Source: Candidatus Latescibacterota bacterium
GTDB lineage: Bacteria > Latescibacterota > UBA2968 > GCA-2709665
Assembly (NCBI GenBank): GCA_965222075.1
Contig: OZ244937.1
Location: 1 to 64,000 of the forward strand
Reading direction: 5' to 3'
Length of the DNA: 64,000 nt
The translations under genes were made by a program, and so were the position numbers. The notes below the pieces were generated by a model. That model searched no databases, had not been told where the DNA came from, and saw only the letters and a program-made list of their open reading frames with translations. This document shows, piece by piece, positions 3,387 to 62,563 of this stretch. Numbering within the stretch: position 1 is the first letter of the stretch; each line of letters begins with the position of its first letter.

Positions 3387-4934
3387 TCATTCAAACGGAC
3401 GCCCAAAGGAGGTGAGCGCCCACAGAGCCAGCAGGTAGACGCATATGAGCGATTGGATACTCGAAACCGTCCTGACCCACCCGGTTGCTCGCAAGGTGTA
3501 CTCTCGGGGCTGTATACGAGCAATCCAGTTGCCGGCGTTAAGGTCCCGCCAGCCGATGTGAAAAGCGGATAATATGCTTAAGTAAAGGCCGACCCACAGA
3601 GCGGTCATTCGAACAGGATTCTTTTCCTCTTCTTCTTTATGGATACGATCCTCCGACCACACAGCCCAGATCCTGGCTTTTTCACCCTTTTTCAGGGCGA
3701 ACATGTACGGAACAGAAAAAGCCGGAATAAGAATTAACACTATAATTAAGGGGCGTTTGGGCGACATGCCGTATTGACATGTCAACTCGAAAAAGATGAG
3801 CTTGAAGGCGCTTTCGATATAACCCAAAGCAAGTCCCAGAGCACGTTCTGTCAGGTTCGCGTATCCAACAGACCTGGTTGCCATGGTCCTTTTGCTGTGT
3901 TCAATGGCGTATGTTATTTCACGTTCCTGTTCACGCAGACCCGCCTGCTTGAACGCTTCACGCACCTCCCTCAGCGAGTGGGGTGAATCCGAGAAGGTCA
4001 TTTGTGAGAGATTCTTTGCACGTGCGAGAGATGGAATCTCCGGTAGAGGTCCCGGTTTAAGCTCGAAAATGGTGAAGGCAAGGTTGGCCTTCCACAGGTT
4101 GGCCTTGCTCAGGTTGGCCTTGCTCAGGTTGGCCTTGCTCAGGTTGGCGCTGCTCAGGTCGGTAAAGCTCAGATCCGCCTCTATCAGGTCGGCACCAGTC
4201 AGGTCGGCCTCGCTCAGATTGGCCCCACTAAGGGTGACCCCACTCACCAGTTTGGCCTCTCTCAGTTTGGCCTTGCTCAGGTCGGCTCTGCTGAGGTTGG
4301 CTCCGAGGAGGTCGGCCCTGCTCAGATCGGCCATCACCAGTTTGGCCTTGCCCAGGTCGGCCCCGACAAGGTTGGCGCCGCTCAGGTCGGCCAGGCTCAG
4401 GTCCGCGCCGCTCAGGTCGGCCGCGCCCAGGATGGCCCCGCTCAAGTTGGCCCCGCTCAGGGTGGCCCTGCTTAAGTTGGCCTGGAGCAGCTTGGCCCCG
4501 CTCAGGTCGGCCCCGATCAGGATGGCCCCGTTCAAGACGGCCGTGACAAGGTCGGTCCCGCTCAGGTTCGCTACGTTCAGGGCAGCCCAGCTCAGGTCGG
4601 CTCCACTCAGGTTCGCCTTTCTCAGGTCGATCCCGCTCAGGTTCGCCTTTCTCAGGTTGGCCCCGCTCAGGGCGGCCTTCTCTCCTTCTTTTTGATCGGT
4701 TGAGAGCCACTTCTGGTGGCGTTCGAGGATTCGGTAGAGGCCATCTCTGGTAAGGGTGGTTCCGTCTCGGAGTCTGCCCTTCCACTCTCTGTTCGTCTGG
4801 TCCTGGCCGCTGGCAGATTGGGCGGCAATGAGCAGAATCCCGGCTATTGTCCCGGTCAAGATACGGACAAAGCGTTGCATAGTCTCTATCCCCCAGCTGA
4901 TACGCTTTTCGTTCCGTCGTTCATCGTTCAGCAT
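3387..4934 (-). CDS. Pentapeptide-repeat protein with C-terminal channel-like transmembrane domain
   Basis: Long A(D/N)LSx repeat tract, N-terminal hydrophobic segment, C-terminal TM helices. Confidence 0.85.
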   Translation of the reverse strand: MLNDERRNEKRISWGIETMQRFVRILTGTIAGILLIAAQSASGQDQTNREWKGRLRDGTTLTRDGLYRILERHQKWLSTDQKEGEKAALSGANLRKANLSGIDLRKANLSGADLSWAALNVANLSGTDLVTAVLNGAILIGADLSGAKLLQANLSRATLSGANLSGAILGAADLSGADLSLADLSGANLVGADLGKAKLVMADLSRADLLGANLSRADLSKAKLREAKLVSGVTLSGANLSEADLTGADLIEADLSFTDLSSANLSKANLSKANLSKANLWKANLAFTIFELKPGPLPEIPSLARAKNLSQMTFSDSPHSLREVREAFKQAGLREQEREITYAIEHSKRTMATRSVGYANLTERALGLALGYIESAFKLIFFELTCQYGMSPKRPLIIVLILIPAFSVPYMFALKKGEKARIWAVWSEDRIHKEEEEKNPVRMTALWVGLYLSILSAFHIGWRDLNAGNWIARIQPREYTLRATGWVRTVSSIQSLICVYLLALWALTSFGRPFE

Positions 4935-4972: not shown

Positions 4973-6082
4973 CTATCGGTTCGAAGATAAAAAGTCTTCC
5001 ACCAGATCCTGAGGAAACATGTGACCCTTGTCGTGGATGACACATTTCACGTTATCCAACCCTTGTAAGAAACGACAGCTATATCCCTTATCCGCTTCTA
5101 TCTTATACGTTCCTTTTTCCTGTTTCCCATAGGTAAACAGATATTGAGTGGACGAGTCTTTTAGCATCGAATAGAGATTATCAAAGCCAACATCGACATA
5201 TAATCCGGGGATGATGATCTGGTGAAATCCAGACCAGGAAATCGTTTTGGTCATCACCGAAAATCCGGATGCAACAACGGCAGCCGTTGGTTCCGATTGT
5301 AACGCGTTCAACAGCGCGGCAGCGCCCCCCTGCGAGAGCCCCAGGATAAAGACTTTGTCGTATTGACTCTGGAGATATTTTATAAATGCGATACTATTCG
5401 CGATGTAGTGAGCAGAATATGAACTGCCATAGTTGAGGAGATAAGGTGTGATAAAAGCATAGTCCAGTTTATTTTTTCCATCATGTATGGCCAGGATGTC
5501 TTCATTCGGCTTGATAAAGATAAATGTATCACCATATTTTTCCGTTATTTCCAGCACGTTTCCGTGATAATTACTCAGGTCTTTTCGGAAAATCGTTGAG
5601 GATTGATTTTTTCCACTTCCCGGGATGATGAGACATGCACAGGTAACATTGGAAGGAGGGGCCTTGCTTTTTTGAAAGTATGAGTAAGCGGTGTAGGTCT
5701 TCCCAAGCCGATAATCCAGTTTAAAGACATCCTCTTCCAGAGAACCTTCCAATATTTCGAGATCGGAGTAAGCATTTTTGAACAGAGATGCTTCCAAAAA
5801 CATCTCGTTTATTCTTTTGTGAATCTGCTCAAACGTTTCCGAGGGAAGGTATATCTGCTGCTCATCGATGAGTGCATCGACAAAAGCAAATCTCAGGAGT
5901 TCCTCCTGGTTTTGAAACTCGAAATCCGGATTCAATAGAGTCATTGTATGCTCCTCATCGACCTGATTTGGGTTCTGCTGCACAAAGGATGTTGAGGCAG
6001 TTGTCAAAACTGATAGGAGGGTGATCAAGAATACCCATCGTACGATTCCTCTGGAAGTCCAGGGCTTCTCAAGGGTTTTCAC
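4973..6082 (-). CDS. Secreted alpha/beta-hydrolase-fold protein
   Basis: GLSQGG nucleophile elbow, C-terminal GH, N-terminal signal-like helix. AT-rich relative to the window. Confidence 0.7.
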   Translation of the reverse strand: MKTLEKPWTSRGIVRWVFLITLLSVLTTASTSFVQQNPNQVDEEHTMTLLNPDFEFQNQEELLRFAFVDALIDEQQIYLPSETFEQIHKRINEMFLEASLFKNAYSDLEILEGSLEEDVFKLDYRLGKTYTAYSYFQKSKAPPSNVTCACLIIPGSGKNQSSTIFRKDLSNYHGNVLEITEKYGDTFIFIKPNEDILAIHDGKNKLDYAFITPYLLNYGSSYSAHYIANSIAFIKYLQSQYDKVFILGLSQGGAAALLNALQSEPTAAVVASGFSVMTKTISWSGFHQIIIPGLYVDVGFDNLYSMLKDSSTQYLFTYGKQEKGTYKIEADKGYSCRFLQGLDNVKCVIHDKGHMFPQDLVEDFLSSNR

Positions 6083-6184
6083 GGGTGGTTCTCTCCTTTC
6101 CGGGACAGCAGGTATACTATCGGGATATGAGGGTCACTCGTGTGGCAGACGAGGTGTATACCGTATGGACTCTAAATTTCTTCC

Positions 6185-6213
6185 AAGGTATTTCATGACT
6201 GAGGGCGTGTCAA
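6185..6213 (-). promoter_or_regulatory. sigma70-type promoter for the leftward operon
   Basis: TTGACA-17 nt-TACCTT on the minus strand. Confidence 0.6.
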
Positions 6214-6266
6214 GGTGTTATTTCGCCCGAAAAATCTTACACACTCAATAGATCAATAAAAAGAGC

Positions 6267-6295
6267 TTGACATCGGTATAAATAATCATTAATTT
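6267..6295 (+). promoter_or_regulatory. sigma70-type promoter for TBDR operon 1
   Basis: TTGACA-17 nt-TAATTT. Confidence 0.6.
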
Positions 6296-6409
6296 GCTGC
6301 AGGCGATTGCAATATTGTTTCCAATTAATGAATCTTACGGGGAAGGTCTTCGTGGGAATGTCATCTATCAATCCCGGTCGCGTCTTAGAGGTCTGAGAGC
6401 GTTTGATAG

Positions 6410-6600
6410 TAGGATATATATAAAAAAATCCCCGTGATCCCAGGTGTTTGGCGACACGGATCACGAGGCTGAGCAGCGTGCAGGGGAATTAGCTATGCTA
6501 TCTCCTTAGCACGCGCTCAATTAGTCTATATAAAAATTCAGTTTCTGTCAAGAATTTTTTGTCGTTTTGTTTGGAGAAATTCGCCGCAGAGGTCGCAGAG
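6410..6600. repeat. ~200-bp conserved non-coding leader element, copy 1
   Basis: Colinear near-identical match to 30591-30794 (taggatatat...gtgtttggYgacacgga...attagctatgctatct...aaattcagtttctgtcaag...ttggagaaattcgccgcagaggtcgcagag). Confidence 0.92.
6422..6518 (-). ncRNA. Candidate ~95-nt cis-antisense sRNA, copy 1
   Basis: Preceded by a minus-strand TTGACA-17-TAGACT (6551-6523). Two stem-loops, the second (cctcgtgatcc/ggatcacgggg) followed by a U7 tract. Confidence 0.6.
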
Positions 6601-6702
6601 ATGTTTGATCTTTCTCTAATCCGGCGTAATCGACAGCTTTGAGGGTTACCTACTTGAAGGATAATCTAACGTGTCATGCTCATTAAAGGAAGGAGGTCGG
6701 TG

Positions 6703-7449
6703 ATGGATTTTGAACGTGTTTTAAGCCTCTGTGTGGCGTTCCTGCTGGTTGTCGGTTTCTCCGACAGCGCGATTGCACAGGATGCGAAGTTTGAAAAGGG
6801 TATTTATGATGTCACCGAACATAACCAGGACCAGGTGAAAAATCTGTTTGTCGAGGATCAGGTGACGATTAAATATGCGCGCGCTTCTCAGATGGACCAG
6901 GCGGGCCGGTGGGTGAGACTGGGCCCGAATGGAGAGGTGTATGAGATCGTGGGCGAGCATCTTCCGGGTGCCGGAACCGAGACCATCCTGATAAACTACC
7001 AGTCCTTAGCCGATGACATCACGGACAAGGACCTGTGGCGTCCCCCCTGTATGATCTTCTACCAGGTGTTGCCGGTGGACTCAGACGGTCCGGTGCGCCT
7101 TTCAGATGCGTTTGAGGTTGAGCCAACACTGGGCGTACGGCCATTGCCGGGCGAATGGTTCACGCTTCCGCAGGCGAAGTTGGCGGCAAGGGTCTATCCG
7201 AATCCGTTCAACCCGAGCACGACGATATCCTACAACCTGCCGGGCGATGCCTTTGTTTCGATCGTCATCTACGATGTGACCGGACAGGAGGTGCGGCGGT
7301 TGGTCGGAGAGACGAAGGCTGCTGGACGCTACAAGGTCCGGTGGGATGGGAAGGATCAGTTTGGCCGCGATGTGAGCAGCGGTGTCTACTTCGCCAGGAT
7401 CGAAGCGGGTCCGTTTTCGACCTCGCAAAAGATGCTGCTGTTGAAGTAG
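6703..7449 (+). CDS. Small secreted protein with T9SS type-A sorting / FlgD-Ig C-terminal domain
   Basis: Signal peptide; YPNPFNPSTTISY...WDGKD...SSGVYFARI...KMLLLK; AGGAGG RBS. Confidence 0.85.
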   Translation: MDFERVLSLCVAFLLVVGFSDSAIAQDAKFEKGIYDVTEHNQDQVKNLFVEDQVTIKYARASQMDQAGRWVRLGPNGEVYEIVGEHLPGAGTETILINYQSLADDITDKDLWRPPCMIFYQVLPVDSDGPVRLSDAFEVEPTLGVRPLPGEWFTLPQAKLAARVYPNPFNPSTTISYNLPGDAFVSIVIYDVTGQEVRRLVGETKAAGRYKVRWDGKDQFGRDVSSGVYFARIEAGPFSTSQKMLLLK

Positions 7450-7541
7450 CGGAACGGCGTTCAAAAAAAGGCGAGGAGGGGAGATTTTTGTTTCGGAGGA
7501 AAGAAGCGTCGTTTCCGTCTCTCAAGGAAGGAGGTGGGTTG

Positions 7542-8258
7542 ATGCGACTTAACTGTTTGATCTTTAGCCTGGGTGGGATGGCTCTTTTGTTTGTATCGGC
7601 CGGCGTTCAGGCTCAGGAGACTAAGTGGGGAATCGGCGGGTTTGTGGATTTCAACATTCCGTTTCTGCAGTTGCGGGAGAGGTTCAGCAACACCCCAAAG
7701 TACGGGGCTACACTGAACTTTGTGCGCAGTAAGGCCGTTACCATCGAGATCGAGTACCACTACTCACGATTCGGCGACGGGAAACCGGGGGCAGAGCCGT
7801 TTACGTGGTCCGTGGACGGCAAGACCTACACCAGCCCGAACGCCGAATCCTCGTTGACGTTCAACAGCGTGACGATCAATGCCCTGATCTTTCTGGGTGA
7901 GGAGAACCGGTCCCGGGGATTCGCGGCAAAGGAGTACCGGTTCTATGTCCTGGTCGGTGGTGGGTTTTACCGCTACAAGATGGTCAACAAGGATCTGGTC
8001 TTCCCGGGACAGACTTCCCTGCCTATCGATTTGACGCTGGTGATGGACCCGCAGGTAGACCAGCGTTACACCCTGGGGGCGGACTTCGGCGTAGGCCTGG
8101 AGGCGTTTGTGACAGACAATCTGAGCTTTGACCTGCGGGGTCGGTACAACTTTGTGGTGGGAGAGCTGAGGCCGATGCTCTTTTACGAACAGGACCGGAC
8201 CCGGCCATTGCAGCTCGTCGACTTCGGCGTGGGGATGAAGTTCTATTTCTGGCAGTGA
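7542..8258 (+). CDS. Outer-membrane beta-barrel protein (OmpA/OmpW-like, 8-stranded)
   Basis: Signal peptide ending VQA, amphipathic strands, C-terminal GVGMKFYFWQ; GGAGG RBS. Confidence 0.75.
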   Translation: MRLNCLIFSLGGMALLFVSAGVQAQETKWGIGGFVDFNIPFLQLRERFSNTPKYGATLNFVRSKAVTIEIEYHYSRFGDGKPGAEPFTWSVDGKTYTSPNAESSLTFNSVTINALIFLGEENRSRGFAAKEYRFYVLVGGGFYRYKMVNKDLVFPGQTSLPIDLTLVMDPQVDQRYTLGADFGVGLEAFVTDNLSFDLRGRYNFVVGELRPMLFYEQDRTRPLQLVDFGVGMKFYFWQ

Positions 8259-8291
8259 GGTCCGGGGTCGGTTTCTGAAAGGAGGCAGGTT

Positions 8292-11200
8292 ATGGATCGC
8301 AAGCTTCTGTGCTTGGGCGTTGTGATCGCGGTTGCAGTAGTGCTGGCCGGTGCAGATGAGCTGCGGGCCGGTATCACCGGGAAGATCATCGGCGTGGTTC
8401 GGGATGCAGCCGGGACGCCGCTGCCGGGCGCCAATGTGGTTCTCAAGGAGGTCAACCTGGGGGGCACTGCGGACGCCGATAGCTACTATATGATTCTCAA
8501 CGTGCCCCCTGGAACCTACACGCTGACGGCTTCGTTGATCGGGTACGAGACAGTGTCCAAGACCGGCGTGGGGGTGATCGTGGACCATACCACCACCATC
8601 GATTTCTCCCTGAAAGAGGCGGCCGTGGAGCTGCAGGAGATCGTGGTGGTTGCGGAGCGTCCGCTGGTGGAGCCGGACAAGACATCGAGCAAGTATACGG
8701 TGGACCTCGACGAGGTGGAGCGGAGCCTGAGTTCGGGCCGGAGCACGGCCGAACTCCTGCAGTTGCTGCCCGGGATTGCCGTGGATGGATCCAACCGGAT
8801 TCGGGGCGGATTTGTGGGCGGCGCAATGTACTACGGAACCGACGTGGCCTACATGGTGGACGGGGTCCGGATGAACTACAACGACAACCGGGGGGGAGGC
8901 TCGGCCGGAGCTTTCACGACGGTCAACCGGGGCATCATCCAGGAACTCGCGGTGCTGACGGGGGTGACGTCGGCAGAGTACGGCAACGCCCAGGGGGGCG
9001 TGGTTTCGATCGTGACCAAGGATGGGGGCAGCCAGTACAAAGGATGGCTTGAGACCCGGTATGAGCCGTCGGGGAAGAAGCACTGGGGGGCAAACGTCTT
9101 CGACGCGCCCCAACACCGGGACAAGGCGACCTGGGATGATCCAAATTGGCGCAATGAGAAGCATCCCGACACAGGGGAGCTGATTCACGTGCGGTCGGAC
9201 TACACGGACCAGTTGGGATGGGACGTGGAGGGCAACCTGTCGGGTCCGATCGGGGCCAATGTCTCGTTTGTAGCCACGCTCAAGCACAGCCGCGTGGCCA
9301 ACCCCCTGCCCGGTCCGGAGAGGACGGGGTTTTACAACGACCGGGGACAGTTCGTGGCAACGGGCCCGAACAACATAACGACATCGGGGAACCTGACGTT
9401 CAGGCCGACGCCTGAGTTGAAGGTGAAAGTGGGAGGACTCTACCAGTGGTGGAAGATCTGGGCCGGTTCAACCCCGGACACCTATACCGCGGGGGTGGGG
9501 GTGTCCACCTTCCTGTCCGGGGTGGTGCGGGGGACGACCGACAATGGGCGGGACCTGTTCCTGCCGGAGAAGTGGTCGGGGGGGGGGCGCCAGACCAACA
9601 CGGAGGAGCTGATGTATGTCGTGTTCACCCAAACCCTTTCTCCCAGGACGTTCTACGAGGTACGGATCTCACACAGCCGGTCGCAGTCCGACACGTCGGG
9701 GACCAGCGACGCCACGGAGCCAAACAAAAAGGACGCTGCCGGGTGGTTCAACCTCGCCCGGAAGGTGAGCCGGTACAATGTGTCCGACCGGAAGCGCTTC
9801 GGCATCAAGGTGGACCTGTCCTCGCAGATGACCAAGGGACACTTTGTCAAAGCGGGGCTGGAATTCCTGAGAGGGAGTGTGCATCTGTTCCAGCGGTGGG
9901 ACTCGAACCCGGCGGATCGACGGTTCGTGTTCATCGGCAAAGATAACATCTTCGGAAAGCCGGAGCACCCGATTTTCTTCAACGCCTACGTGCAGGACAA
10001 GATGGAGTTTGAGGGGATGATCGTGAACGTGGGAATCCGGATGGATGGGTTCAACCCGAACACACGGGATGTGCCGCTGGGGGCCTACATGGGCGCGCCG
10101 ATGTTCTACAGATACACGTGGGCTCGGGACTACCTCTACCAGGAGGGCTCGCACTATGTCACGGATTCCCAGCAGCAACTGAGGTTCAGCCCCCGGTTGG
10201 GGCTCTCCCACCCGATCACCCAGCGGTCGCAGATGTGGTTCTCGTCCGGGGTCTACCTGCAGTGGCTGGACCTCTCGGCCTACTATGAGAAGGACTACCA
10301 ATCGTTTGGGCAGGGGGTGGATCGGGACGTCAACGGGAATGGGAAGATCGACGATACCGAACGGTTCAACCAGATGCGGATGACGTACGCCGGCATTCGC
10401 GGGAACATAAACTTGAAGCCGGCCAAGACGACGGCCTTCGAAGCGGGGATGGCCTGGAACTTCGTCTCCGACTACACGGCAACACTGTCCGCTTACTTCA
10501 AGAGCGAGGTAGACCATCCGAGCAACCTCTCCGGCCAGGGTTGGCGCGGGGCGTGGACCGGCTATAAGCGCTACAACCGCTACACGGTCAATGGCGTCCA
10601 CGGCAACACCCGGGGGATCGAGCTGTCGGCGCGAAAGGAGTTCAGCCACCACTTCTCGTTCAAGGTCTCCTATAACTACCAGTGGTCGCAGTGGACCACG
10701 GGCAAGCGGTTCACCGGGACCATGCGGATCCAACAGGATGCGGAATCGGTGCGCCGGATGGCCGGGACGATCATGTACACCCACCCGGAGACGGGGGCGC
10801 CGGTGCCTCAGTTGTTTCTGGATTGGGCCCCCCACCCGTCCGGGCGGGAGGTCCCGGTACCGATGACGGAGCAGCAGATCGTGGACCAGGGGAAGCAGGT
10901 GCAGGGAAGGTACAATAGCGAACTGGACTGCTGCCAGGCAGGGTCGTACTCGGGAGTGACGAATTGGGAGGGGCTGCTGCCGACGCCAGGCCCCCCGGGC
11001 GTGAATGGGCTTAAAGTCCAGGTCGGGGGCACGAGCAGGGTGGAGATGATGCCCAAGCCCGGGGACCGGCGGAATTTCGGGAGCGCGGTGTTTCTGGCTT
11101 CGCTGCCGGACAAGTTCCAGTTCGGGCCGCCCTTCCTGGGGCGGCTGCTGAGCAACGTCCGGATGAACCTGGTCACCCGGATCCAGACCGGGACACTGTT

Positions 11201-11510
11201 CCGGTATACGCCGCCGCAGGGCGGGGAGCAATCCTGGCGCGAGTTGGCGATGGACTCCCGGACCGACCTGGCGTTGGAGAAGACCTTCAATGTAAACCGC
11301 CGGGTGCAGCCGACGGTCTTCTTAGATGTTCGCAACCTGTTCAACCAGCAGGATCGGACCAACCCCACGAGCAGTTCGGATTATACCTATTTCGGAATTG
11401 TTGGCTCAAAGCCGGACAACCCCATCTACCTGTCATACGGCGATGCGAGGGATCGGATCTATGCCCACACACCGCGTCTGACACACATCGGCGTGCGGCT
11501 CGCCTGGTAG
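8292..11510 (+). CDS. TonB-dependent receptor 1 (N-terminal carboxypeptidase-regulatory-like domain)
   Basis: GITGKIIG..PLPGANV, plug motif SAEYGNAQGGVVSIVTKDG, YVQDKMEFEGMIVNVGIR, C-terminal GVRLAW. Confidence 0.92.
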   Translation: MDRKLLCLGVVIAVAVVLAGADELRAGITGKIIGVVRDAAGTPLPGANVVLKEVNLGGTADADSYYMILNVPPGTYTLTASLIGYETVSKTGVGVIVDHTTTIDFSLKEAAVELQEIVVVAERPLVEPDKTSSKYTVDLDEVERSLSSGRSTAELLQLLPGIAVDGSNRIRGGFVGGAMYYGTDVAYMVDGVRMNYNDNRGGGSAGAFTTVNRGIIQELAVLTGVTSAEYGNAQGGVVSIVTKDGGSQYKGWLETRYEPSGKKHWGANVFDAPQHRDKATWDDPNWRNEKHPDTGELIHVRSDYTDQLGWDVEGNLSGPIGANVSFVATLKHSRVANPLPGPERTGFYNDRGQFVATGPNNITTSGNLTFRPTPELKVKVGGLYQWWKIWAGSTPDTYTAGVGVSTFLSGVVRGTTDNGRDLFLPEKWSGGGRQTNTEELMYVVFTQTLSPRTFYEVRISHSRSQSDTSGTSDATEPNKKDAAGWFNLARKVSRYNVSDRKRFGIKVDLSSQMTKGHFVKAGLEFLRGSVHLFQRWDSNPADRRFVFIGKDNIFGKPEHPIFFNAYVQDKMEFEGMIVNVGIRMDGFNPNTRDVPLGAYMGAPMFYRYTWARDYLYQEGSHYVTDSQQQLRFSPRLGLSHPITQRSQMWFSSGVYLQWLDLSAYYEKDYQSFGQGVDRDVNGNGKIDDTERFNQMRMTYAGIRGNINLKPAKTTAFEAGMAWNFVSDYTATLSAYFKSEVDHPSNLSGQGWRGAWTGYKRYNRYTVNGVHGNTRGIELSARKEFSHHFSFKVSYNYQWSQWTTGKRFTGTMRIQQDAESVRRMAGTIMYTHPETGAPVPQLFLDWAPHPSGREVPVPMTEQQIVDQGKQVQGRYNSELDCCQAGSYSGVTNWEGLLPTPGPPGVNGLKVQVGGTSRVEMMPKPGDRRNFGSAVFLASLPDKFQFGPPFLGRLLSNVRMNLVTRIQTGTLFRYTPPQGGEQSWRELAMDSRTDLALEKTFNVNRRVQPTVFLDVRNLFNQQDRTNPTSSSDYTYFGIVGSKPDNPIYLSYGDARDRIYAHTPRLTHIGVRLAW

Positions 11511-11598
11511 CGGTGGGGGGAGCGGAGCGTCGCCCGGGAGGCGATTGTCCCCAATTCCACCCTGGCTTATGTTTGTTTAACACAAGGAGGCAGGAGCT

Positions 11599-14064
11599 AT
11601 GAAAATCGGCTGTCTGAACCTCGCTTTGAAGGCAGGGACCGCGATCAGCACGGCCCTGATCGCTGGCGCCGTCTGGCTGGAGACGACACAGGCGCAGATG
11701 AACCCGCACTCCATGCCCAGGAAGTATGCGATGAACACCCGGGCGATGATGATGTCGTCGTGGACCAACATGGGCACTCAGGGGGGGAGCGGGGATTACA
11801 ACTGGGGCGGCCGGAAAAACTCCTACCCGAGCATCGGCCTCGGGATAGGGGGCTACGGTGACCGGATGAGGAATCTCGGTTCCTCCCCGTGGGGTACATA
11901 TTATTGGGGCTACGGCACCTCCGGCGGGGAGGGTACCTTTGTTGTTAACGGAGAAACCAGGACGGTCACCATGGCCGGCCCACGCTTGAGCCAGGATTTC
12001 CTTGAGAACGTTCGGGCGCGGGTCTACGACCCGAAAGGGAAACCGGAGGAGAATTGGGGGGTGCCCAACCCGATTGTCCCACTCTGGAGGGGGGCGAAGT
12101 CGGGGGAATGGACGGGCATCGGAGGAGAGATACCGCCGATGGCCACCTACTGGCCCGGCATCACCGCTGCGGACCAGTGGAGCATCTATGCGAACGACCT
12201 CAATCCACAGAACACCGAAATGCCCCGAATGGCCAACTACGGGCTGAGCGGCTACATCGTGGACCTGACGCTCCCCGAAGAGACGATTATCGCGCAGTGG
12301 GTCGACATCCGGCACGGTGTTCAGATCACCCGGCGGGTCTACAACTGGAGCCACCCCGATTTCAACGATTTTTACATCCAGGATCTGACCTTCACCAACA
12401 CCGGGGACTTCGACGGGGACGGTGCCGAGGACAACCCGGGTGGGACGGCGACGCTCCAGGAGTTGTACTTCGGGTTCATGAACATCGAGGAATGCTGTGC
12501 ATACGGGACGGGCTACGGACATTCGAGAAACCCGTTTCTGGACCCGGACGACATCTACTACTACACGGACGCGGCTGGCTACCCCGGTGTGTTCCCCCCG
12601 GGGATGAGGGCGAGCATCTGGCGAGACGCGGACAATCCGAGAGACGCCATTAACGACCTGGGCGACCCCTGGTTCGACGCTATAGGGCCGAGTAGGTTTG
12701 ATATCGGCCAGACCGAGGGCCAGCCGAGGTCTCCGTCCCACTATGCGATGGTCCCGCTGGCCTTCCGGAACGGGGGGGAGTCCCACACGTTCAACGACTG
12801 GGACCAGGGGAAATACGTAGACCCTCAGGGGGAGCAGCCCTACGCGGCCAGGTATTGGAACGCCCGCGGCCAACAGGACTTCGACTACCCGTATACGGAG
12901 ACCCACTCCCAGACGCAACTGTCCCAGATCTTTACCGAGAAGGTCATTCAGGACAATCCCGATGAGAACAACCCGGCCCACCGCACCGGCTACATCCACG
13001 TGCAGATCTACGGGCCCTACACCCTTCAGCCGGGCGAAAGCGGCAAGACCGTGATGGCCTGGGTGGCCGGCCATCCGGCGCAGATGGTGCCCGATCATTC
13101 ACAGCCGGGCACCTACCACATGGACTACCTCGCGTGGGATCAGGCGGACAGACCGTCGGAGGATAAGCAGCAGGACATCGTGACCCTGGGCGAACAGGCG
13201 CTTTTGGAGAACGCGCAGATGGCCCATTTCACCTACCAGGCGAGCTACCAGATCCCGCCGGCGCCGACCAACGCGTTCATCCCCCCTGCCGACCTGACGG
13301 CCAGCGAAAACGCCCACCAGTTGATCAGGTGGTCCGATAAGGCGGACCAGGCGGTCAACCCCCTCACCGGGGAGCAGGATATCCTGGGCCACCGGGTCTA
13401 CCGCTCGACCCATTTTGGCTACGGGCCGTGGGAACTCCACGACACGATCAAGCCCGGGGAGAGCGGTCAGAGCAACAATGGGAAGTGGACCCACGACGCG
13501 GCGTCCGGGATGTACGAATATGAGGATCTGGATTCAGCGGCCGGATTCACCTACCACTACTCGGTCCGCCCGTTCGCCAAGGGCTACAGCGCCTGGACGA
13601 GTTCCGACGGGAAGAAGACCTTAGCGGACATCCCGTCGGCCCGGGTGCGGGCGAACGTGCAGAAGGGCTACGAGAGCGGATGGGGGCCTCAATCGGCCCG
13701 GACGTACACCGATGGGAGGGAGCCGTTCCAGCCGGTGACACCCGAACTCGAGCGGTTGGATAAGCAGGTGGTGGTGGTACCCAACCCCTATCGGGCGGAC
13801 GGCGAGCACCAGTATCCGAATCAAAAAACCATCCGTTTCGTGAACCTGCCGTCGAAGTGCAAGGTCTACATCTATTCGGCGTCCGGAGACCGGGTGCGGA
13901 CCCTGGCGCACGATGACCCCACCAGGGGGGAGAGGCCGTTTTTCCACTTGACGGGGAACCTGGCGGGTGACATCCCGACGGGATTCTACCACTTTGTTGT
14001 GGTGTCCGAGGTGCCGGGCAGCGAAGGGAAGGTCCAGCGTGGGGCCTTCGTGGTGATCAAGTAG
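11599..14064 (+). CDS. Large secreted TBDR-partner protein with Fn3-like domain and T9SS-like C-terminal domain
   Basis: Signal peptide; GHRVYRS..WEL; C-terminal VVVPNPY...IRFVNLP.KC..YIY...G.Y.FVV...FVVIK. Paralog of 33987-36545. Confidence 0.78.
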   Translation: MKIGCLNLALKAGTAISTALIAGAVWLETTQAQMNPHSMPRKYAMNTRAMMMSSWTNMGTQGGSGDYNWGGRKNSYPSIGLGIGGYGDRMRNLGSSPWGTYYWGYGTSGGEGTFVVNGETRTVTMAGPRLSQDFLENVRARVYDPKGKPEENWGVPNPIVPLWRGAKSGEWTGIGGEIPPMATYWPGITAADQWSIYANDLNPQNTEMPRMANYGLSGYIVDLTLPEETIIAQWVDIRHGVQITRRVYNWSHPDFNDFYIQDLTFTNTGDFDGDGAEDNPGGTATLQELYFGFMNIEECCAYGTGYGHSRNPFLDPDDIYYYTDAAGYPGVFPPGMRASIWRDADNPRDAINDLGDPWFDAIGPSRFDIGQTEGQPRSPSHYAMVPLAFRNGGESHTFNDWDQGKYVDPQGEQPYAARYWNARGQQDFDYPYTETHSQTQLSQIFTEKVIQDNPDENNPAHRTGYIHVQIYGPYTLQPGESGKTVMAWVAGHPAQMVPDHSQPGTYHMDYLAWDQADRPSEDKQQDIVTLGEQALLENAQMAHFTYQASYQIPPAPTNAFIPPADLTASENAHQLIRWSDKADQAVNPLTGEQDILGHRVYRSTHFGYGPWELHDTIKPGESGQSNNGKWTHDAASGMYEYEDLDSAAGFTYHYSVRPFAKGYSAWTSSDGKKTLADIPSARVRANVQKGYESGWGPQSARTYTDGREPFQPVTPELERLDKQVVVVPNPYRADGEHQYPNQKTIRFVNLPSKCKVYIYSASGDRVRTLAHDDPTRGERPFFHLTGNLAGDIPTGFYHFVVVSEVPGSEGKVQRGAFVVIK

Positions 14065-23757: not shown

Positions 23758-24771
23758 ATGAATACCTACGAGCTTTCGAGCCTCGAACGCGGGTGGCTCG
23801 CGGAGGCCCGGGCGAATCTGAGCTACCAGGCGACAAATGCTGAGGAGCATCGGGAATGGCGGGAGCGGGCCCTGCCCAGGCTGCGCGCGCTGTTCGGGGT
23901 CACGCCCGAGCTGGCGGAGCCGCCGGAGATCATCTTGGGAGAGGCCTCGGATGTGGAGGGCATTCAGGTCCGGTATTTTCAGCACCGGGCCTACGACGGG
24001 GAGATGCGCGACCACATTCTGCTGCAGCCGGAGGACCCGCAGGGCGTGGTGATCGCGCTGAACGACGCAACGCAATTGGAAGTGATTGCGGGCCTGGACC
24101 ATCCCGAGCTGGCACAGAAGCCGGACCGGGGCCTCGGGCTGCCCCTGGCGGGGGCGGGGCTGGCGGTGATCGTGACCGAGCTCAGGGGGTACGGGCGTAC
24201 GGGACATCCGAAGAAGTGGGGCTACCCCGGCATTTACGTTACCTCGGTGGCCTACACCGCCCTGGGAAAGGATCCGCTCGCGCAGGTGTATGCGAAGGAC
24301 AACCTGCAGACGGTTGCGGCCGCGAAGCACCTGTTCCCCGGGCTGAAGGTCGGTTTTGTGGGGATCTCCAAGGCGGGAGACAATACGGCCAAGACGGCGG
24401 CGCTCTCGGAGGACGTCGACCTGGCCTACGTGGCGTCGGGGTGCACCGACGAGCGGTTTGCGGGCTATACGACGGAGCCGCACCTGTACCCGCCCGGGCT
24501 GTCCAATTGTTTCTGGCGGCCGGATTACCTGTGTTTTATCGCGCCCCGGCCGCTGCGTCTGAGCTACGGGCTGCAGGAGAACTTTGCCTACCGCCGGGAG
24601 GCAGAAGAGAAGGCGGCTTTCAGGTATGCGCTGAGGGCATACGAGAATGCGGGCGCCTCGGGTCGGATTTCGCAGCTTACCCATCCCGAGGGACACGTGT
24701 TCATCATCGAGGACATCGTTTCATTTTTTGCGACGGAAATACGGAGACTCAACGGAGAGGGGAGGCCGTAG
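23758..24771 (+). CDS. Alpha/beta hydrolase (dienelactone hydrolase / acetylesterase-like)
   Basis: ELRGYG, GISKAG elbow, IAPRPL, EGHVF. Confidence 0.75.
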   Translation: MNTYELSSLERGWLAEARANLSYQATNAEEHREWRERALPRLRALFGVTPELAEPPEIILGEASDVEGIQVRYFQHRAYDGEMRDHILLQPEDPQGVVIALNDATQLEVIAGLDHPELAQKPDRGLGLPLAGAGLAVIVTELRGYGRTGHPKKWGYPGIYVTSVAYTALGKDPLAQVYAKDNLQTVAAAKHLFPGLKVGFVGISKAGDNTAKTAALSEDVDLAYVASGCTDERFAGYTTEPHLYPPGLSNCFWRPDYLCFIAPRPLRLSYGLQENFAYRREAEEKAAFRYALRAYENAGASGRISQLTHPEGHVFIIEDIVSFFATEIRRLNGEGRP

Positions 24772-24773
24772 GT

Positions 24774-25676
24774 ATGGATATTCTGGAGATGCTGAAACAG
24801 GGCACCGTGCTGGGCGACGGGGGCTACCTGGTGGAGGCGCGATTCCGGGGTTACAGCACGCCGAAGGTGATTGTGGAGTTTCCGGAAGTGCTGCGGCAGA
24901 TCCACGTGGACTTTTTTCGGGCGGGTTCGCAGGTGCTGCAGGCGCATACGTGGTGGACCACCCGCAAGTACCTGAAACAGCGTGGGGGAGACCGGGGCTG
25001 GGCGGACCGGATGGAGGAGATCAACCGGACGGCGGTTCAGTTGGCGAAGGAGGCGGCGGCCGGTGAGGCGCTGGTGGCCGGGTCTCTGTGCGCAGCGGGA
25101 TATGGAAACGACATGCTGGATTTAGACGACAAGGCGGCCTGCGACGCAGCGCAGGCGGAGTGGGACGAGCAGATCGCGGTGATGGCCGACGAGGGGGTGG
25201 ACCTGCTGATCTGCGAGGCGATCCGCCGCCTGGACGAAGCCCGGCTGGTCCTGGCCTGCTGCAAGAAGACCGACATCCCGACGGTCGTGACGATGGGGGC
25301 GGGGATGGTCGTGTTCAAACCCAGGGAGATGGAAGGTGTGACCGCGGCGCACTGCGCGCGTGTGCTGGTCGACGAGGGCGCGGACGCCGTGGGCATGAAC
25401 TGCGGGCTGGATTCCCGCAATATGTGGCCATACGTGCTGGAGATGCGGGAGGCGGTGGACGTGCCCGTCGCCTACCAGCCGGTGGGCACCCGGACGGACG
25501 TGCCCGGCTGGCGTCCGATTCAAGAGTCGGTTGTGGTGCCAGGGCGGGAGATGGCGAAATACGCGCTGAAGGCGGAGGCAGAAGGAATCAACTATATCGG
25601 CGCCTGTTGTGGAGCAGGTCCCGAGCACATCCGCGCGATGGCGCAGGCGCTGGGGTGCGAGCGGGATCCGATCTGA
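24774..25676 (+). CDS. Homocysteine S-methyltransferase (BHMT-like) family protein 1
   Basis: LGDGGY, GMNC and GACCG Zn ligands. Confidence 0.9.
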   Translation: MDILEMLKQGTVLGDGGYLVEARFRGYSTPKVIVEFPEVLRQIHVDFFRAGSQVLQAHTWWTTRKYLKQRGGDRGWADRMEEINRTAVQLAKEAAAGEALVAGSLCAAGYGNDMLDLDDKAACDAAQAEWDEQIAVMADEGVDLLICEAIRRLDEARLVLACCKKTDIPTVVTMGAGMVVFKPREMEGVTAAHCARVLVDEGADAVGMNCGLDSRNMWPYVLEMREAVDVPVAYQPVGTRTDVPGWRPIQESVVVPGREMAKYALKAEAEGINYIGACCGAGPEHIRAMAQALGCERDPI

Positions 25677-27348: not shown

Positions 27349-29370
27349 TCACCATACGTGCAACCAGTGTCCATTGCGGGGAAACCAGATTTGGTCGACA
27401 AAGTGGAAAAGGAGGACGGCGATGGCGTGACCCACGATGATGCCGATGAAGAAGGGAATGCCCCGGCGGTAGAGGGATACACCCCCGACCCGAAGGAGAA
27501 TCGACTTGATGCCCCAGATCATGACAATGCTTACCACTGAGTTGCGGGCACCGGTGCCGGCCGCGGGCAGGCCGATGGGGTGGAGAGGCCACCAGGGGAA
27601 GCGGTAGCGGAGGTAGGTGAGGAGGGCCATAAGCCCGGCGCCGATGCCGAAGAACATGAAACGTTCCCATTCGGTTCCGGTGTAGTTTTTGATGAGGCTG
27701 AGGGACCGGTCGAAGAGCCTGGGGGGAAACTGGACGAAGAGATAGTCTCGGAAGTTGGCGGCGCCGTGGGCATAGCCTGCGTAGAGGGTCGCCAGGATCG
27801 AGGTGATAAAGGCGACGAGGACCGTCAGGAGGATCGCCGCGACGAGCCGGCGTCCCTGTCTCCGGATGAGATCGCTCAGGCGGGCCACCTGCGTGAGGGC
27901 CGGCAGGAGGACCCCCGGTCCGTTGCTCCGGAGGATGAAGGAGAAGGTGAGGACTGTCATACTGGAGGCGGAGACGGAGGAGGTGCCGCTGAGGCGCACG
28001 GCGAATTCTTCGGCACTCATGGGGCTGCCAGCGTAGAGGATGCCGGCCTCGGCCACAAACCGCGATATGCCGATGTAGATGACCAGCAGGGCGAAGAGGA
28101 AGGGGAGGGTGACCCGGAGTTCCAGACCGGCGGCGTGGAACCAGAAGAGGGTGTAGGACAGGCCGCCGAGGGTGCAGCAGACGGCGGCGCGGCAGGAGAG
28201 CATTTCGCCGGTATCGTCGAGGGGGTGGTCGGACCGGAGGGCCTTGCGGACGACATCGATCAGGTGCCGCCGGGAGATGTAGAGTCCCCAGAGCACCAGG
28301 AAGGTAAAGGACCCGAAGGACTGCCAGACGGTTTCGGGGTCGCTCCAGGCGCCTTTTGTGCCGAGGTAGCCGAGGACGCCGAACCCGCCGCCGATCTGGT
28401 AGCCCACCCGCCGGAACAGGCCGAGCTGCAAGGCCATCAGCAGGAGGAAGATCCAGATGCCCAGGAGGACGTCCAGGTTGACGAAGTAGCCGAAGCCGAA
28501 GGTGTAGAGGTTGAACCGGGTCCAGATCGGGGGACTGTAGCGGTTGAGGTAGAACCACTGGCCCGGCCACAGGAAGCGGGGGAGGGAGGGGATCAGGAGG
28601 GAGATGAAAGAGAAGTAGTTCCAGGCGTCTATCAACAGGGCCACAGCAAAGCCGGCCCAGAAGAGGCGGGTAAGTGCGGTTCTGGACCAGAGGGCACCGG
28701 GCTGAGGCTCTTCGGTGAGGGGGATCGCAGGCGTCAGGAGGGGGTAGGCGAGGCGCTGGTGTTCGGCCCAGGACCGGCGGAGGATGACGGCGATGCCGAG
28801 GCTGAAGGCTGCCACCGCGGCGATGAGGGTGCCCCACCAGAACAGGGGAACCAGCCAGACATCCCACGGGATGGCCGCGCCGGGGGGAAGCCCTTCAAAG
28901 AGGTAGGTCAGGGCAGAGCCGGTATCGCGAGGAGCCAGCCAGGACGGGATATGGCCGTGAAAGAAGTGGTCCCACTGGTTCTCCGGAGAGGCGTAGTAGA
29001 AGGGGGCGGTCAGAATCCCGATGAGGATGCTGGTGACGCCGAAGGTAGGAATGCCGGCGCCGACCAGGCCCATGGCTATGGCGACGAACAGTTCGGGGCG
29101 GGTGAGCGCCCACCTGTGATTCAGCAAGTTGAGGGCAGGGTTCAGGATGAGGAGGAAGAGCACAAAGGGCGCGACAAGGGCGACGGGAAACTGGGTCATG
29201 TTGGGCCGCGAGGTCCGGGCGATCGTTTCGGCGTGGATACACCAGAGGTTCGCGACCACGACCAGGAGGAGACCGAGGACGAGGGCACGGAGTGTGACCG
29301 CGCGGACGGGCCGGTCCACCGGAGAGGCGGCGGGCCGATCGGTAGAGTGGACAGCGGAAGAGTGCTGCAT
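27349..29370 (-). CDS. DUF6785/DUF6784-type polytopic membrane protein (putative peptide/solute transporter), copy 1
   Basis: Many TM helices; YYASPENQW, RFVAEAG, FPWWPLHPIG, PFFIG motifs. Confidence 0.8.
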   Translation of the reverse strand: MQHSSAVHSTDRPAASPVDRPVRAVTLRALVLGLLLVVVANLWCIHAETIARTSRPNMTQFPVALVAPFVLFLLILNPALNLLNHRWALTRPELFVAIAMGLVGAGIPTFGVTSILIGILTAPFYYASPENQWDHFFHGHIPSWLAPRDTGSALTYLFEGLPPGAAIPWDVWLVPLFWWGTLIAAVAAFSLGIAVILRRSWAEHQRLAYPLLTPAIPLTEEPQPGALWSRTALTRLFWAGFAVALLIDAWNYFSFISLLIPSLPRFLWPGQWFYLNRYSPPIWTRFNLYTFGFGYFVNLDVLLGIWIFLLLMALQLGLFRRVGYQIGGGFGVLGYLGTKGAWSDPETVWQSFGSFTFLVLWGLYISRRHLIDVVRKALRSDHPLDDTGEMLSCRAAVCCTLGGLSYTLFWFHAAGLELRVTLPFLFALLVIYIGISRFVAEAGILYAGSPMSAEEFAVRLSGTSSVSASSMTVLTFSFILRSNGPGVLLPALTQVARLSDLIRRQGRRLVAAILLTVLVAFITSILATLYAGYAHGAANFRDYLFVQFPPRLFDRSLSLIKNYTGTEWERFMFFGIGAGLMALLTYLRYRFPWWPLHPIGLPAAGTGARNSVVSIVMIWGIKSILLRVGGVSLYRRGIPFFIGIIVGHAIAVLLFHFVDQIWFPRNGHWLHVW

Positions 29371-30523: not shown

Positions 30524-30551
30524 TTGACAACAGGGATAGAGTGATTATATT
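30524..30551 (+). promoter_or_regulatory. sigma70-type promoter for TBDR operon 2
   Basis: TTGACA-16 nt-TATATT. Confidence 0.55.
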
Positions 30552-30590
30552 CTCAAGTTGTGCAATTATTAGTGGTCTTTCAAAATAGCG

Positions 30591-30794
30591 TAGGATATAT
30601 ATAAGAAAAATCCCGCGTGATCCCACGTGTTTGGTGACACGGACCCCGGGACCGAGCAGCGTGCAAGGGGATTAGCTATGCTATCTTCTTAGCACACACT
30701 CAATTAGCCAACCTACATAGAAATTCAGTTTCTGTCAAGGATTTTTTGTTCTCTTGCGTTTTGTTTGGAGAAATTCGCCGCAGAGGTCGCAGAG
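30591..30794. repeat. ~200-bp conserved non-coding leader element, copy 2
   Basis: Colinear match to 6410-6600. Confidence 0.92.
30603..30704 (-). ncRNA. Candidate cis-antisense sRNA, copy 2
   Basis: Minus-strand TTGACA-17-TAGGTT (30738-30710), the same two hairpins, and a U-tract after the tcccg/cggga stem. Confidence 0.55.
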
Positions 30795-30859
30795 TTGTAA
30801 ACGCCGATAGGTTGAGAATTTACCGAGGGAGCCGGGTTTTCTCACAAGGAGGTTGTCGT

Positions 30860-37583: not shown

Positions 37584-37620
37584 AAGGCCTCCTGTTGCGG
37601 ATCGTTCAACAGGGGGCCTT
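37584..37620. terminator. Intergenic hairpin after the PorV/PorQ gene
   Basis: aaggcctcctgttg-9 nt-caacagggggcctt. Confidence 0.55.
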
Positions 37621-37648
37621 ACACCTTCATGACAGGGGAGGATGGAAC

Positions 37649-38536
37649 ATGTCAGAGGGCATCCTTGAACGTCTCTCAAAGGGTCCCGTACTCGGCGACG
37701 GCGGTTATATCTACATTTTACGCCAGCGGAGGCTGCCGATGGAGAACTGGTCACCGCAGGATGTGCTGACGCACACCGACGCGGTACAGCAGCTCCAGCA
37801 GGAGTTCTTCGACGCCGGGGCGGAGGTGCTTATGGCGGAGACGTTCTCCGGCACGCGAAACCGGCTGGAGGAGGTGGGGCAGTCGGACCGGTTTGAGGAG
37901 ATCCACCGGAAGGCGGTGGAGATCGCCCGGAACGTGTCGCAGGGACGCGCGCTGATCGCCGGGACGGTGGGGTCGGCCCTCGGGTCGCAGTTTCGGGAAG
38001 GGGACGGGGACCGGGTGAGGCCCTGGTATGAGGAGGAGTGCGCGACCCTGAAGGATCTGGGCGTGGATTTCATGATCCTGGAGACGTTATACTTCTTAGA
38101 GGATGCGCTGGGTGCCCTGGGGGGGGCAAAGTCCACGGGCCTGGCGACGATGGTGACGATGTCGTGCAAACCTGAGCTCAAATCCCGCGAGGGGTTCGAG
38201 ATGGACATCTGTGCGAAGCGTTTGAAGGATGCGGGGGCTGACATCGTGGGACTGAACTGCATGCAGGACCCGGAGTTGATGCTGCCGCTGATGGAACAGG
38301 TCCGGAAGGCGGTGGACGGCCCGATCGCCGCGCAGCCGGTGGCCGTGCAGTGCCGGCCTTATGTCTACATGGGTGAGTCGGGGAGGCCGTGGACGGAGCT
38401 TGTCCTGCCTCCACAAGCGATGGCGGATTTTGCCCGGCAGGCGATGGAGGTCGGGATCGACTATATCGGCTCCTGCTGCGGGTCGGGCCCCGAACACGTC
38501 AGGGCGATGGCTGAGGCGATGGGCAAGGCTTCATAA
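37649..38536 (+). CDS. Homocysteine S-methyltransferase family protein 2 (divergent paralog)
   Basis: LGDGGY, GLNC, GSCCG. Confidence 0.88.
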   Translation: MSEGILERLSKGPVLGDGGYIYILRQRRLPMENWSPQDVLTHTDAVQQLQQEFFDAGAEVLMAETFSGTRNRLEEVGQSDRFEEIHRKAVEIARNVSQGRALIAGTVGSALGSQFREGDGDRVRPWYEEECATLKDLGVDFMILETLYFLEDALGALGGAKSTGLATMVTMSCKPELKSREGFEMDICAKRLKDAGADIVGLNCMQDPELMLPLMEQVRKAVDGPIAAQPVAVQCRPYVYMGESGRPWTELVLPPQAMADFARQAMEVGIDYIGSCCGSGPEHVRAMAEAMGKAS

Positions 38537-44194: not shown

Positions 44195-44233
44195 TTGCCT
44201 CTCAAAAACCTTTTTTCGGAGGAGGATCGGAGG

Positions 44234-62381: not shown

Positions 62382-62411
62382 TTGACAGAACGCATAGATT
62401 CGTTATAAATT
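62382..62411 (+). promoter_or_regulatory. sigma70-type promoter for TBDR 3
   Basis: TTGACA followed by TATAAATT at 16-18 nt spacing. Confidence 0.55.
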
Positions 62412-62460
62412 TATGTATTACGTTAGGACTTCATGACTTCCAAATAAGCTTTAGCTTCTG

Positions 62461-62563
62461 AGAAGGATAAATCGGTCGAAAGGCCGAGAGGAATAGTTAT
62501 GGGTCTTCGTCTGCCACAAGAGAGCCGCACTGCCGGGGGAATGGATGGTAGTACGGTTTTTTT
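62461..62563 (+). ncRNA. c-di-GMP-I (GEMM)-like riboswitch variant with overlapping intrinsic terminator
   Basis: ggataaa-tcggtc-GAAA-ggccga-gaggaatag-ttatgggtct...gagagccgcactgcc. The 3' strand can alternatively pair with ggtagtacggt, followed by a T-run. Confidence 0.55.

Follow-up and report, generated by a model that had tools for sequence, protein, structure and literature searches.

A candidate antisense RNA gene in a receptor operon leader

The window analysed here is the first 64 kb of the single-contig 5.36 Mb genome of a Candidatus Latescibacterota bacterium, and our subject is a candidate small RNA (sRNA) gene that lies, within positions 6267–6600, opposite the 5′ region of an operon for a TonB-dependent receptor (TBDR). 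The gene belongs to a module of 200–230 bp, of which the genome holds further copies; the one at hand is copy 1 (nhmmer envelope 6378–6610). The original prediction, made from the sequence of this region, had a plus-strand promoter (6267–6295) facing a minus-strand one (6551–6523), and between them two hairpins and a minus-strand U7 terminator that delimit an RNA of ~95 nt. Reading the sequence confirmed both promoters, and the hairpins and terminator held as well; the predicted minus-strand RNA starts near 6517, ends at ~6424 and is ~94 nt long. The features read in and around the module are the following, the invariance of the terminator loop referring to five aligned sequences of the genus:

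6267–6295, plus strand: P1, candidate operon promoter TTGACA-17-TAATTT (TTGACA at 6267–6272, TAATTT at 6290–6295), predicted start near 6302
6381–6421, no strand assigned: left part of the module, best common to copies 1 and 3 in the alignments, with no significant fold
6422–6428, minus strand: U7 tract of the predicted intrinsic terminator, reading A7 on the plus strand
6430–6468, minus strand: bulged terminator hairpin of 15 pairs, with CCAAACAC, the loop and 3′ side, invariant in 5/5 sequences
6470–6519, minus strand: 5′ stem-loop of the sRNA, closed by a stem of ~10 pairs, with an inner stem and, at its apex, an AUAGC/GCUAA hairpin
6523–6551, minus strand: putative sRNA promoter TTGACA-17-TAGACT (TTGACA at 6551–6546, TAGACT at 6528–6523), 10/12 in the consensus scan, predicted start 6516–6519
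6552–6601, no strand assigned: conserved right part of the module; it lies upstream of the sRNA promoter and has ~37 nt identical in three copies
6639–6667, plus strand: P2, second candidate operon promoter TTGAGG-17-TAATCT, common to copies 1 and 3 only

A consensus scan of 5800–7000 returned two promoter-like sites against 1.6 expected from shuffles, so that one such site alone is unremarkable; P1 is missing from the scan list because its second hexamer matches at just 3 of 6 positions. The pattern TTGACA-17-TAnnnT occurs 246 times on both strands of the 5.36 Mb, where our own base-composition estimate gives roughly 16, and about three occurrences are expected per 64-kb window. Judging from these counts TTGACA-type promoters are clearly used by the organism, and two facing TTGACA-17-TAnnnT sites ~250 bp apart around a conserved structured core are more than chance. 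The hairpin at 6430–6468 is unique within the 64-kb window; read on the minus strand it is GC-rich, has 15 pairs and is followed by an A and U7, as in an intrinsic terminator, and we take the bulge to be the reason why a simple terminator scan did not call it.

No Rfam family matched the 64-kb window at gathering score, in line with the view of the original prediction that this is not a named RNA family. When we searched 6100–6750 at E-values up to 10, the only match above noise was RF02589, the Streptococcus pyogenes sRNA Spy779816, on the minus strand at 6424–6509 and at half its gathering score (32.7 bits against 67). This best sub-threshold match shares a hairpin-spacer-terminator layout and a common GUCGCCAAAC in the terminator loop; we regard it as a chance terminator likeness, as its E-value of 0.0016 is valid for the 651-base search only and the match is absent from the window-wide search. 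The window held no tRNA or tmRNA, and the module copies no conserved small open reading frame: a 21-residue GTG frame of copies 1 and 2 was rejected as a gene, since it lacks a Shine-Dalgarno (SD) sequence and is frameshifted in copy 3.

Fold and choice of strand

On the minus strand, 6418–6519 folded into two hairpins at −49 kcal/mol (z −6.4; 0 of 200 shuffles were as good). The plus strand gave a mirror fold at −46.2 kcal/mol (z −5.8), with an inner loop UGGC within GUGUUUGGCGAC; the TTTGGCG given as the sense-strand loop in the original prediction was thus approximately right. The minimum-energy fold had an ensemble frequency of 0.52 on the minus strand vs 0.07 on the plus strand.

For a comparative structure we used RNAalifold on five minus-strand sequences, all closely related and from one genus, and obtained 35 pairs. 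In the minus-strand reading the pair cells comprised 151 Watson-Crick, 14 G·U and 4 A·C; read on the plus strand, the 14 G·U cells turn into A·C mismatches and the four A·C cells into G·U (10 vs 4 when distinct pairs are counted). The structure was 94.8% paired, vs 32–47% with partners slid. Helix 1, the 5′ stem-loop, has 20 pairs, two of them changed on both sides, with 93.9% of cells paired; helices 2 and 3, which form the terminator hairpin, are 95–96% paired and hold one pair that changed on both sides, from A-U to G-C, G·U occurring as an intermediate.

The minus-strand signals are conserved as well. The −35 box, spacer and 17-nt spacing are identical in all four copies that include that part (the three copies of this genome and one, L011, of a relative), and the spacing is kept despite indels just beyond the −10, which itself varies (TAGACT in copy 1, TAGGTT in copy 2, TAGATA in copy 3 and TAAACT in L011). 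A U-tract of 4–7 follows the hairpin in 5/5 aligned sequences. The kept −35 and spacing, the U-tract and the excess of G·U over A·C favour the minus strand as the putative RNA strand, and the sequence comparison supports a ~94-nt RNA gene whose promoter, structured body and intrinsic terminator all read on the minus strand and follow one another correctly in order and spacing.

Three copies at divergent receptor operons

Searches with BLAST, with a covariance model built from the sRNA part (R1) and with nhmmer --max, using one profile for the entire module and another for the sRNA part, all returned exactly three copies in the 5.36 Mb genome, and no fourth copy was found genome-wide by any of them; the weak extra nhmmer matches were to a repetitive extragenic palindromic (REP)-like motif, described below, and held no further sRNA copies. 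The second copy that the original prediction had pointed to is thus present, and a third lies outside the window. These copies and the genes of the first operon are placed as follows:

30524–30551, plus strand: candidate promoter of the copy 2 operon, TTGACA-16-TATATT, 11/12, upstream of the module
30574–30805, no strand assigned: module copy 2 (R1 score 119 bits; BLAST match 30590–30798, 86% identity over 209 columns)
~30703 to 30606, minus strand: copy 2 sRNA, promoter TTGACA (30738–30733)-17-TAGGTT (30715–30710)
genome 4692590–4692795, other strand, outside the window: module copy 3, 87% identity by BLAST
6703–7449, plus strand: first gene of operon 1, an FlgD_ig / Por_Secre_tail protein sorted by the type IX secretion system, likely ATG at 6703 behind GGAGG
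8292–11510, plus strand: CarboxypepD_reg + Plug TBDR of operon 1, by domain match

All three copies lie upstream of an operon for a CarboxypepD_reg + Plug receptor of ~1020–1070 residues, in the same relative orientation, and in all three the sRNA is encoded opposite to the 5′ region of the operon. At copies 1 and 3 another outer-membrane gene stands before the receptor: operon 1 runs from the FlgD_ig protein through a beta-barrel outer-membrane protein and the receptor to proteins without Pfam hits, and copy 3 is followed by a beta-barrel outer-membrane protein and then the receptor, with a LacI-family gene upstream. The copy 2 receptor is directly downstream, with its ATG at 30860. Many genomic copies unlinked to TBDR operons had been named in the original prediction as a sign of a mobile-element scar; the search returned three copies, each at such an operon. 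The plasmid-style module of that prediction fared less well, as a mobile or plasmid origin is unsupported by three chromosomal copies in which reading showed no terminal inverted repeats.

The module copies are 86–87% identical in nucleotide sequence, and the module boundaries are sharp, the module replacing the leader found in the closest paralog. The three receptors are 29–34% identical and rank 12th–16th in each other's paralog lists, and the module marks just three of at least 31 Plug-domain receptors in the genome, 30 of them from a domain listing and that of copy 2 added by hand; the 68% and 57% identical paralogs of the copy 2 receptor are without it. Because the modules are so much more alike than the receptors, the module has been kept or copied independently of the genes. 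It may either have been copied into three leaders or have been held alike by selection or conversion, to judge from these identities.

A separate observation concerns the leader of a third TBDR operon of the window, 62382–62770, where a strong promoter (TTGACA-18-TAAATT, 62382–62411) lies ~350 nt ahead of the ATG. A terminator-like hairpin with CGCCAAAG in the loop and a CUCUUUUU tail is present on the minus strand at 62578–62612; we saw no minus-strand promoter in this leader, and R1 and nhmmer gave no match to it. It may be an unrelated or a decayed analogue of the module.

The right block, flanking repeats and relatives

The best-conserved part of the module is a block of ~37 nt, 6564–6600, identical in the three copies and upstream of the sRNA promoter, with no significant RNA fold. 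Its end, TTCGCCGCAGAGGTCGCAGAG (6580–6600, 21 nt; copy 2 equivalent 30774–30794), is a variant of the dispersed REP-like motif, which has the consensus TTCACCGCAGAGACGCAGAGG and is often continued by ACGCAGAGAA. In the strict form CCGCAGAG.{1,3}CGCAGAG the motif has 17 genome sites. REP-like sites include 2688057, 4530303, 4995254/4995307 and 5001318/5001371; some are paired into ~70-nt palindromes, and many follow an A/T-rich hexamer at a distance of a few nt, with a start codon close behind. The module is flanked by AGAGGTCTGAGAG (6387–6399) and AGAGGTCGCAGAG (6588–6600), an imperfect direct repeat that matches at 11/13 positions; it is clear in copies 1 and 3, weaker in copy 2, and may be a trace of cassette copying. 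We propose, from the sequence, that the right block may be a shared control region, a recombination scar of such copying, or both.

Scanning the genome and its relatives with the covariance model, as the original prediction had suggested, placed the module in its own genus only: it was found in two of 22 family genomes (by BLAST and R1) and in two of 151 genomes of a phylum sample (by R1, under stricter filters and with many of the genomes incomplete), and none of these lay outside the genus. An exact 24-nt pattern matched one record among genome contigs, which is a relative, G021 (contig C297), and two exact patterns gave zero matches each in metagenome contigs, such patterns missing diverged relatives. 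A second species of the genus holds at least two module copies.

In G021 the ortholog of copy 2 has its sRNA body and promoter on two contigs (L010:1590–1629 on C127 and L011:1560–1600 on C297), the ends of which read into the same 14-nt terminal repeat. This repeat has 24 occurrences in G021, most of those whose position can be read lying no more than ~25 nt from a contig end, and none in the window's genome; we read the break as a multicopy insertion sequence (IS) that appears to have inserted exactly at the sRNA start. Elsewhere in G021, L009:1230–1300 (C48) has a copy-1-like left leader behind a promoter nearly identical to that of copy 2, TTGACA.CAGGGATA.AGTG, which occurs once in the window's genome. 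Because L009 is a mosaic of a copy-1-like leader and a copy-2-like promoter, it suggests recombination between copies.

Sense transcription and RNA libraries

Whether the sRNA meets its complement depends on where the operons start. Other TBDR operons have TTGACA promoters ahead of them, 70–651 nt from the printed frame starts, and for paralogous TBDR operons without the module consensus TTGACA promoters and leaders of roughly 110–350 nt are the norm; since this is so, P1 and an overlap with the leader are plausible for copies 1 and 2. The sole consensus operon promoters of these two copies lie upstream of the module (6267–6295 and 30524–30551), and the 65 nt between module and ATG at copy 2 hold no consensus promoter, 33 of them being deleted in the relative. 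With the only consensus promoter upstream, sense transcription would have to cross the sRNA gene at copy 2 and probably at copy 1. The full complementarity to the operon leader that the original prediction asserted is accordingly plausible for copies 1 and 2, by this promoter comparison, and is not supported for copy 3, where no obvious consensus promoter lies upstream.

Two other signals in this stretch were considered and set aside. An A/U hairpin with a U-run at 6533–6560 was rejected as an attenuator, as was the right part of the module, both folding no better than shuffles; and a right-part promoter with AGAAAT as −10 is unsupported, matching at ~6/12 and having its −35 shifted by a 7-nt indel between copies.

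Four sponge metatranscriptome runs of one study (X1–X4), read as assembled contigs that carry no strand, ends or levels, contain 68–73% of the sampled words of 5000–12000. We placed their contigs on 5800–7600 and did not count stretches without cover as evidence. In X1 a contig spans 6424–6640, starting inside the U-tract, and in X4 contigs span 6318–6400 and 6371–6606; X3 has only short pieces at 6383–6414, from other copies or strains, and X2 nothing in the module. The stretch 6134–6317, just upstream of the predicted sense start at ~6302, is uncovered in 4/4 runs, and cover in X4 begins at 6318. As a side observation, an X4 contig departs from the genome within the terminator hairpin, with G for T at 6445, and again upstream of 6371, which points to related strains in the same community that have a module version of their own.

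Proposed mechanism and alternatives

We tentatively propose that the locus holds one of three paralogous sRNA genes, each set backwards in the leader of a TBDR operon and lowering the output of that operon in cis, a possibility to which we give somewhat less than even weight. The minus-strand sigma-70-type promoter (6551–6523) would start a ~94-nt RNA near 6517, which would form a long stem-loop at its 5′ end, followed by a GC-rich terminator hairpin that has the invariant CCAAACAC on its loop side, and would end in the U7 at ~6424. Since transcription from P1 would cross the sRNA gene, ~94 nt of the leader would be the perfect complement of the sRNA, and the sRNA would lower the P1-derived output in cis by collision of two convergent polymerases from promoters ~250 bp apart, by forming a duplex with the nascent leader that is then cleaved as double strand and decays, or by both routes. 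We infer here that there is such an RNA and that the sense transcripts run across its gene; the direction and mechanism of the regulation are inferred too, as is the role of a ‘switch’ that the original prediction gave to the module.

A number of results weigh against this proposal. Copies 2 and 3 have weak sRNA −10 boxes (3/6 each, with copy 3 lacking the final T), the copy 2 sRNA promoter is absent from the consensus scan list, and the covariation is not significant (three pairs with changes on both sides, equalled in 55 of 500 shuffles), as only five close sequences were to hand. The most conserved block, 6564–6600, lies outside the sRNA and is unexplained by the model. The pairing region lies far from the ribosome-binding site, roughly 185 nt ahead of the first start codon, folding found no sense-strand terminator or attenuator downstream of it, and no obvious consensus promoter stands upstream of the module at copy 3. 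The RNA data are strandless contigs with a depth of ~4 in the module, which was assembled in two of the four runs. The X1 contig extends to 6640, beyond the predicted sRNA start, the X4 contigs continue leftwards through the terminator to 6318, and contigs of the operon or its first gene start at 6599, 6631, 6632 and 6689 (6689 in X4) at depths of 7–12.5. Because these contigs begin at 6599–6689, the bulk of the operon RNA may have its start downstream of the sRNA gene, where P2 (6639–6667) is a second candidate promoter, and little sense RNA may then be left for pairing. The contigs fit a minority of transcripts from P1, an RNA of the minus strand that ends at the terminator, and operon RNA that mostly starts further downstream, among other possible readings, and their breaks near 6600 may have been caused by the 37-nt block common to the three copies.

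These contig starts, found in 4/4 runs together with the rise in depth from ~4 in the module to 7–12.5 in the first gene, also speak for a somewhat unlikely alternative, namely that the sRNA is real and in practice not antisense: the operons would start downstream, at the right edge of the module or at P2, and the sRNA would be a divergent, co-regulated partner acting in trans, or the promoter region would be what matters. P2 is common to copies 1 and 3, the latter being the copy without an upstream consensus promoter, the terminator loop is invariant, as a seed would be, and the identical 37-nt block upstream of the sRNA promoter resembles a shared control region. Against downstream starts stands copy 2, where no consensus promoter lies between module and ATG, and the right part makes a poor sigma-70 promoter (~6/12). 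As for action in trans, predicted duplexes between the sRNA and the downstream leader and receptor start regions were at shuffle level (z −0.8 to +1.7, by a crude duplexfold test with mononucleotide shuffles), and no match to the chaperones Hfq (PF17209) or RRM_1 (PF00076) was found in the genome, which is rated 97.6% complete; with neither found, a chaperone-independent, fully complementary mode fits. It is unlikely, by a further step, that there is no stable sRNA at all and that the module is a DNA-level operator or promoter cassette, or a REP-like palindromic repeat, copied to three leaders, with the hairpins as by-products of palindromic DNA. The right end of the module is indeed a variant of a motif with 17 sites, some of them long palindromes, imperfect direct repeats flank the module at 6387–6399 and 6588–6600, its distribution does not follow receptor phylogeny, the covariation is short of significance, and both strands fold almost equally well. 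Against this stand the perfect −35 at 17-nt spacing and the U-tract, kept on the same strand in every copy, and the 14 to 4 asymmetry of G·U to A·C; there are also three copies only, with no burst, and the hairpin region shares nothing with the REP-like family.

That same asymmetry bears on the idea that the functional RNA is the plus-strand leader, a cis-regulatory element bound by a protein or ligand, with the minus-strand signals incidental. The plus strand does fold with z −5.8, the module sits in the leaders of three operons of one functional class, and the leader has UGUUUGG at two places, the hairpin loop and 6568–6574. Yet 14 cells that form pairs in the minus-strand reading become A·C mismatches in the plus-strand one, the plus-strand minimum-energy fold reaches a frequency of just 0.07, the A-run ahead of the hairpin would be without a role there, no expression platform (a terminator or an SD-sequestering helix) was found, and no Rfam cis-regulatory family matched, so we hold this account to be improbable. 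More improbable still is a miniature inverted-repeat transposable element (MITE) or a mobile-element scar without function. For it speak the sharp boundaries, the module replacing the leader of the closest paralog, and an unrelated IS that landed inside one copy in the relative genome. Against it, there are three copies only, in one kind of place and one orientation, reading of the module ends showed no terminal inverted repeats (no dedicated test was run), a second species of the genus has at least two copies, and the exact patterns gave zero matches in metagenome contigs and a sole relative among genome contigs.

Beyond the antisense proposal itself, we consider it doubtful, and quite unlikely as a whole, that the ~220-bp module is a portable cassette, made up of sRNA gene, promoter and 37-nt control block with a REP-like half-site, that was copied into three leaders, probably by recombination at GCAGAG-type repeats, to give one antisense-controlled regulon. 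If it were so, a regulon would have been assembled by the spread of an antisense-RNA cassette and not by transcription-factor sites. The three near-identical sRNAs could, in addition, cross-pair with each other's leaders.

Comparison with known antisense systems

The plasmid countertranscripts CopA/CopT of R1 and RNAI/RNAII are antisense RNAs of ~90 nt with two stem-loops, convergent with and fully complementary to the leader that they control, and YUNR U-turn loops are the kissing sites of antisense-controlled plasmid replicons such as CopA/CopT. The RNA proposed here is likewise of ~90 nt with two stem-loops in a convergent layout, and it has a YUNR-like UUGG in the sense loop; the U-turn and kissing idea of the original prediction drew on this one four-letter match in one loop and on background knowledge. 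It differs in heading a chromosomal operon, with no replication gene and no homology to these systems, and neither a leader peptide nor a downstream attenuator was found. We take the comparison as a resemblance of layout only.

A closer analogy is offered by the DonS-type antisense RNAs of Bacteroides, for which we draw on PMC7366714, PMC13750123 and PMC11697453. These RNAs (Cao et al. 2016, as cited in PMC7366714 and PMC11697453) are 78–128 nt long and lie on the opposite strand in polysaccharide utilization loci; they form a family with several copies per genome, adjoining the first genes of SusC-like operons, with a repressive role reported (PMC7366714, PMC11697453) and a mechanism that PMC11697453 states to be unknown. 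The likeness lies in a small RNA, here a predicted one, on the opposite strand at the head of a SusC-like/TBDR operon, at several loci per genome. The module differs in belonging to Latescibacterota, in having classical TTGACA promoters in place of the Bacteroides type, and in placing the sRNA in the leader, ~185 nt before the start codon, of operons in which the receptor is not always the first gene. No sequence or structure homology to DonS was seen, the absence of an Rfam match at gathering score being read with the proviso that a DonS model in Rfam 15 was not verified.

Bacteroides thetaiotaomicron also has, according to PMC11697453, the paralogous FopS sRNAs and GibS, multicopy RNAs tied to outer-membrane glycan transporter operons. 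FopS is described there in 14 copies with canonical housekeeping promoters and a Rho-independent terminator, and it acts in trans through a single-stranded 5′ seed (R1 in that paper's usage) that pairs close to the start codon of susC; FopS is opposed by RbpB, an RRM protein (PMC11697453). The putative Latescibacterota sRNA resembles FopS in being a multicopy family at outer-membrane transporter operons with a housekeeping-type promoter and an intrinsic terminator, and differs in its three copies and in having almost no single-stranded 5′ end. A FopS-like trans action on start codons is unsupported, given that paired 5′ end and the shuffle-level duplexes.

By analogy, then, the arrangement is of a kind already known from Bacteroides, an antisense sRNA heading a TBDR/SusC-like operon in several paralogous copies; the small RNA probably dampens the three receptor operons as the Bacteroides antisense RNAs do, and it likely represents a new, genus-restricted sRNA family analogous to the DonS type. 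If real, it would be the first candidate regulatory RNA known to us for Latescibacterota, a full-text literature search on sRNAs of this phylum having returned nothing relevant among the matches listed. It would also mean that antisense sRNAs at the head of outer-membrane uptake operons are not confined to gut Bacteroides and occur elsewhere in the Fibrobacteres–Chlorobi–Bacteroidetes (FCB) group, where the promoters are classical and the RNA is unrelated. That the modules are so much more alike than the receptors further raises the question of how short regulatory cassettes move or homogenise between operons. The practical weight of the finding is limited to one genus of uncultured sponge symbionts and to an sRNA predicted from sequence.

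Other features of the window

Among the TBDR operons of the window there are paralogs of homocysteine S-methyltransferase (PF02574), with domains confirmed at 23856–25676, 37595–38536 and 41469–42374; 44195–45121 and 55674–56600 belong to the same paralog cluster, to which they were assigned by repeat families only. Paralogs of ~600–700 residues neighbour them, one of which, 27349–29370, is a DUF6785/DUF6784 protein. A 15-nt periodic repeat array at 4064–4696 lies within the minus-strand gene 3387–4934 and encodes a pentapeptide-repeat protein.

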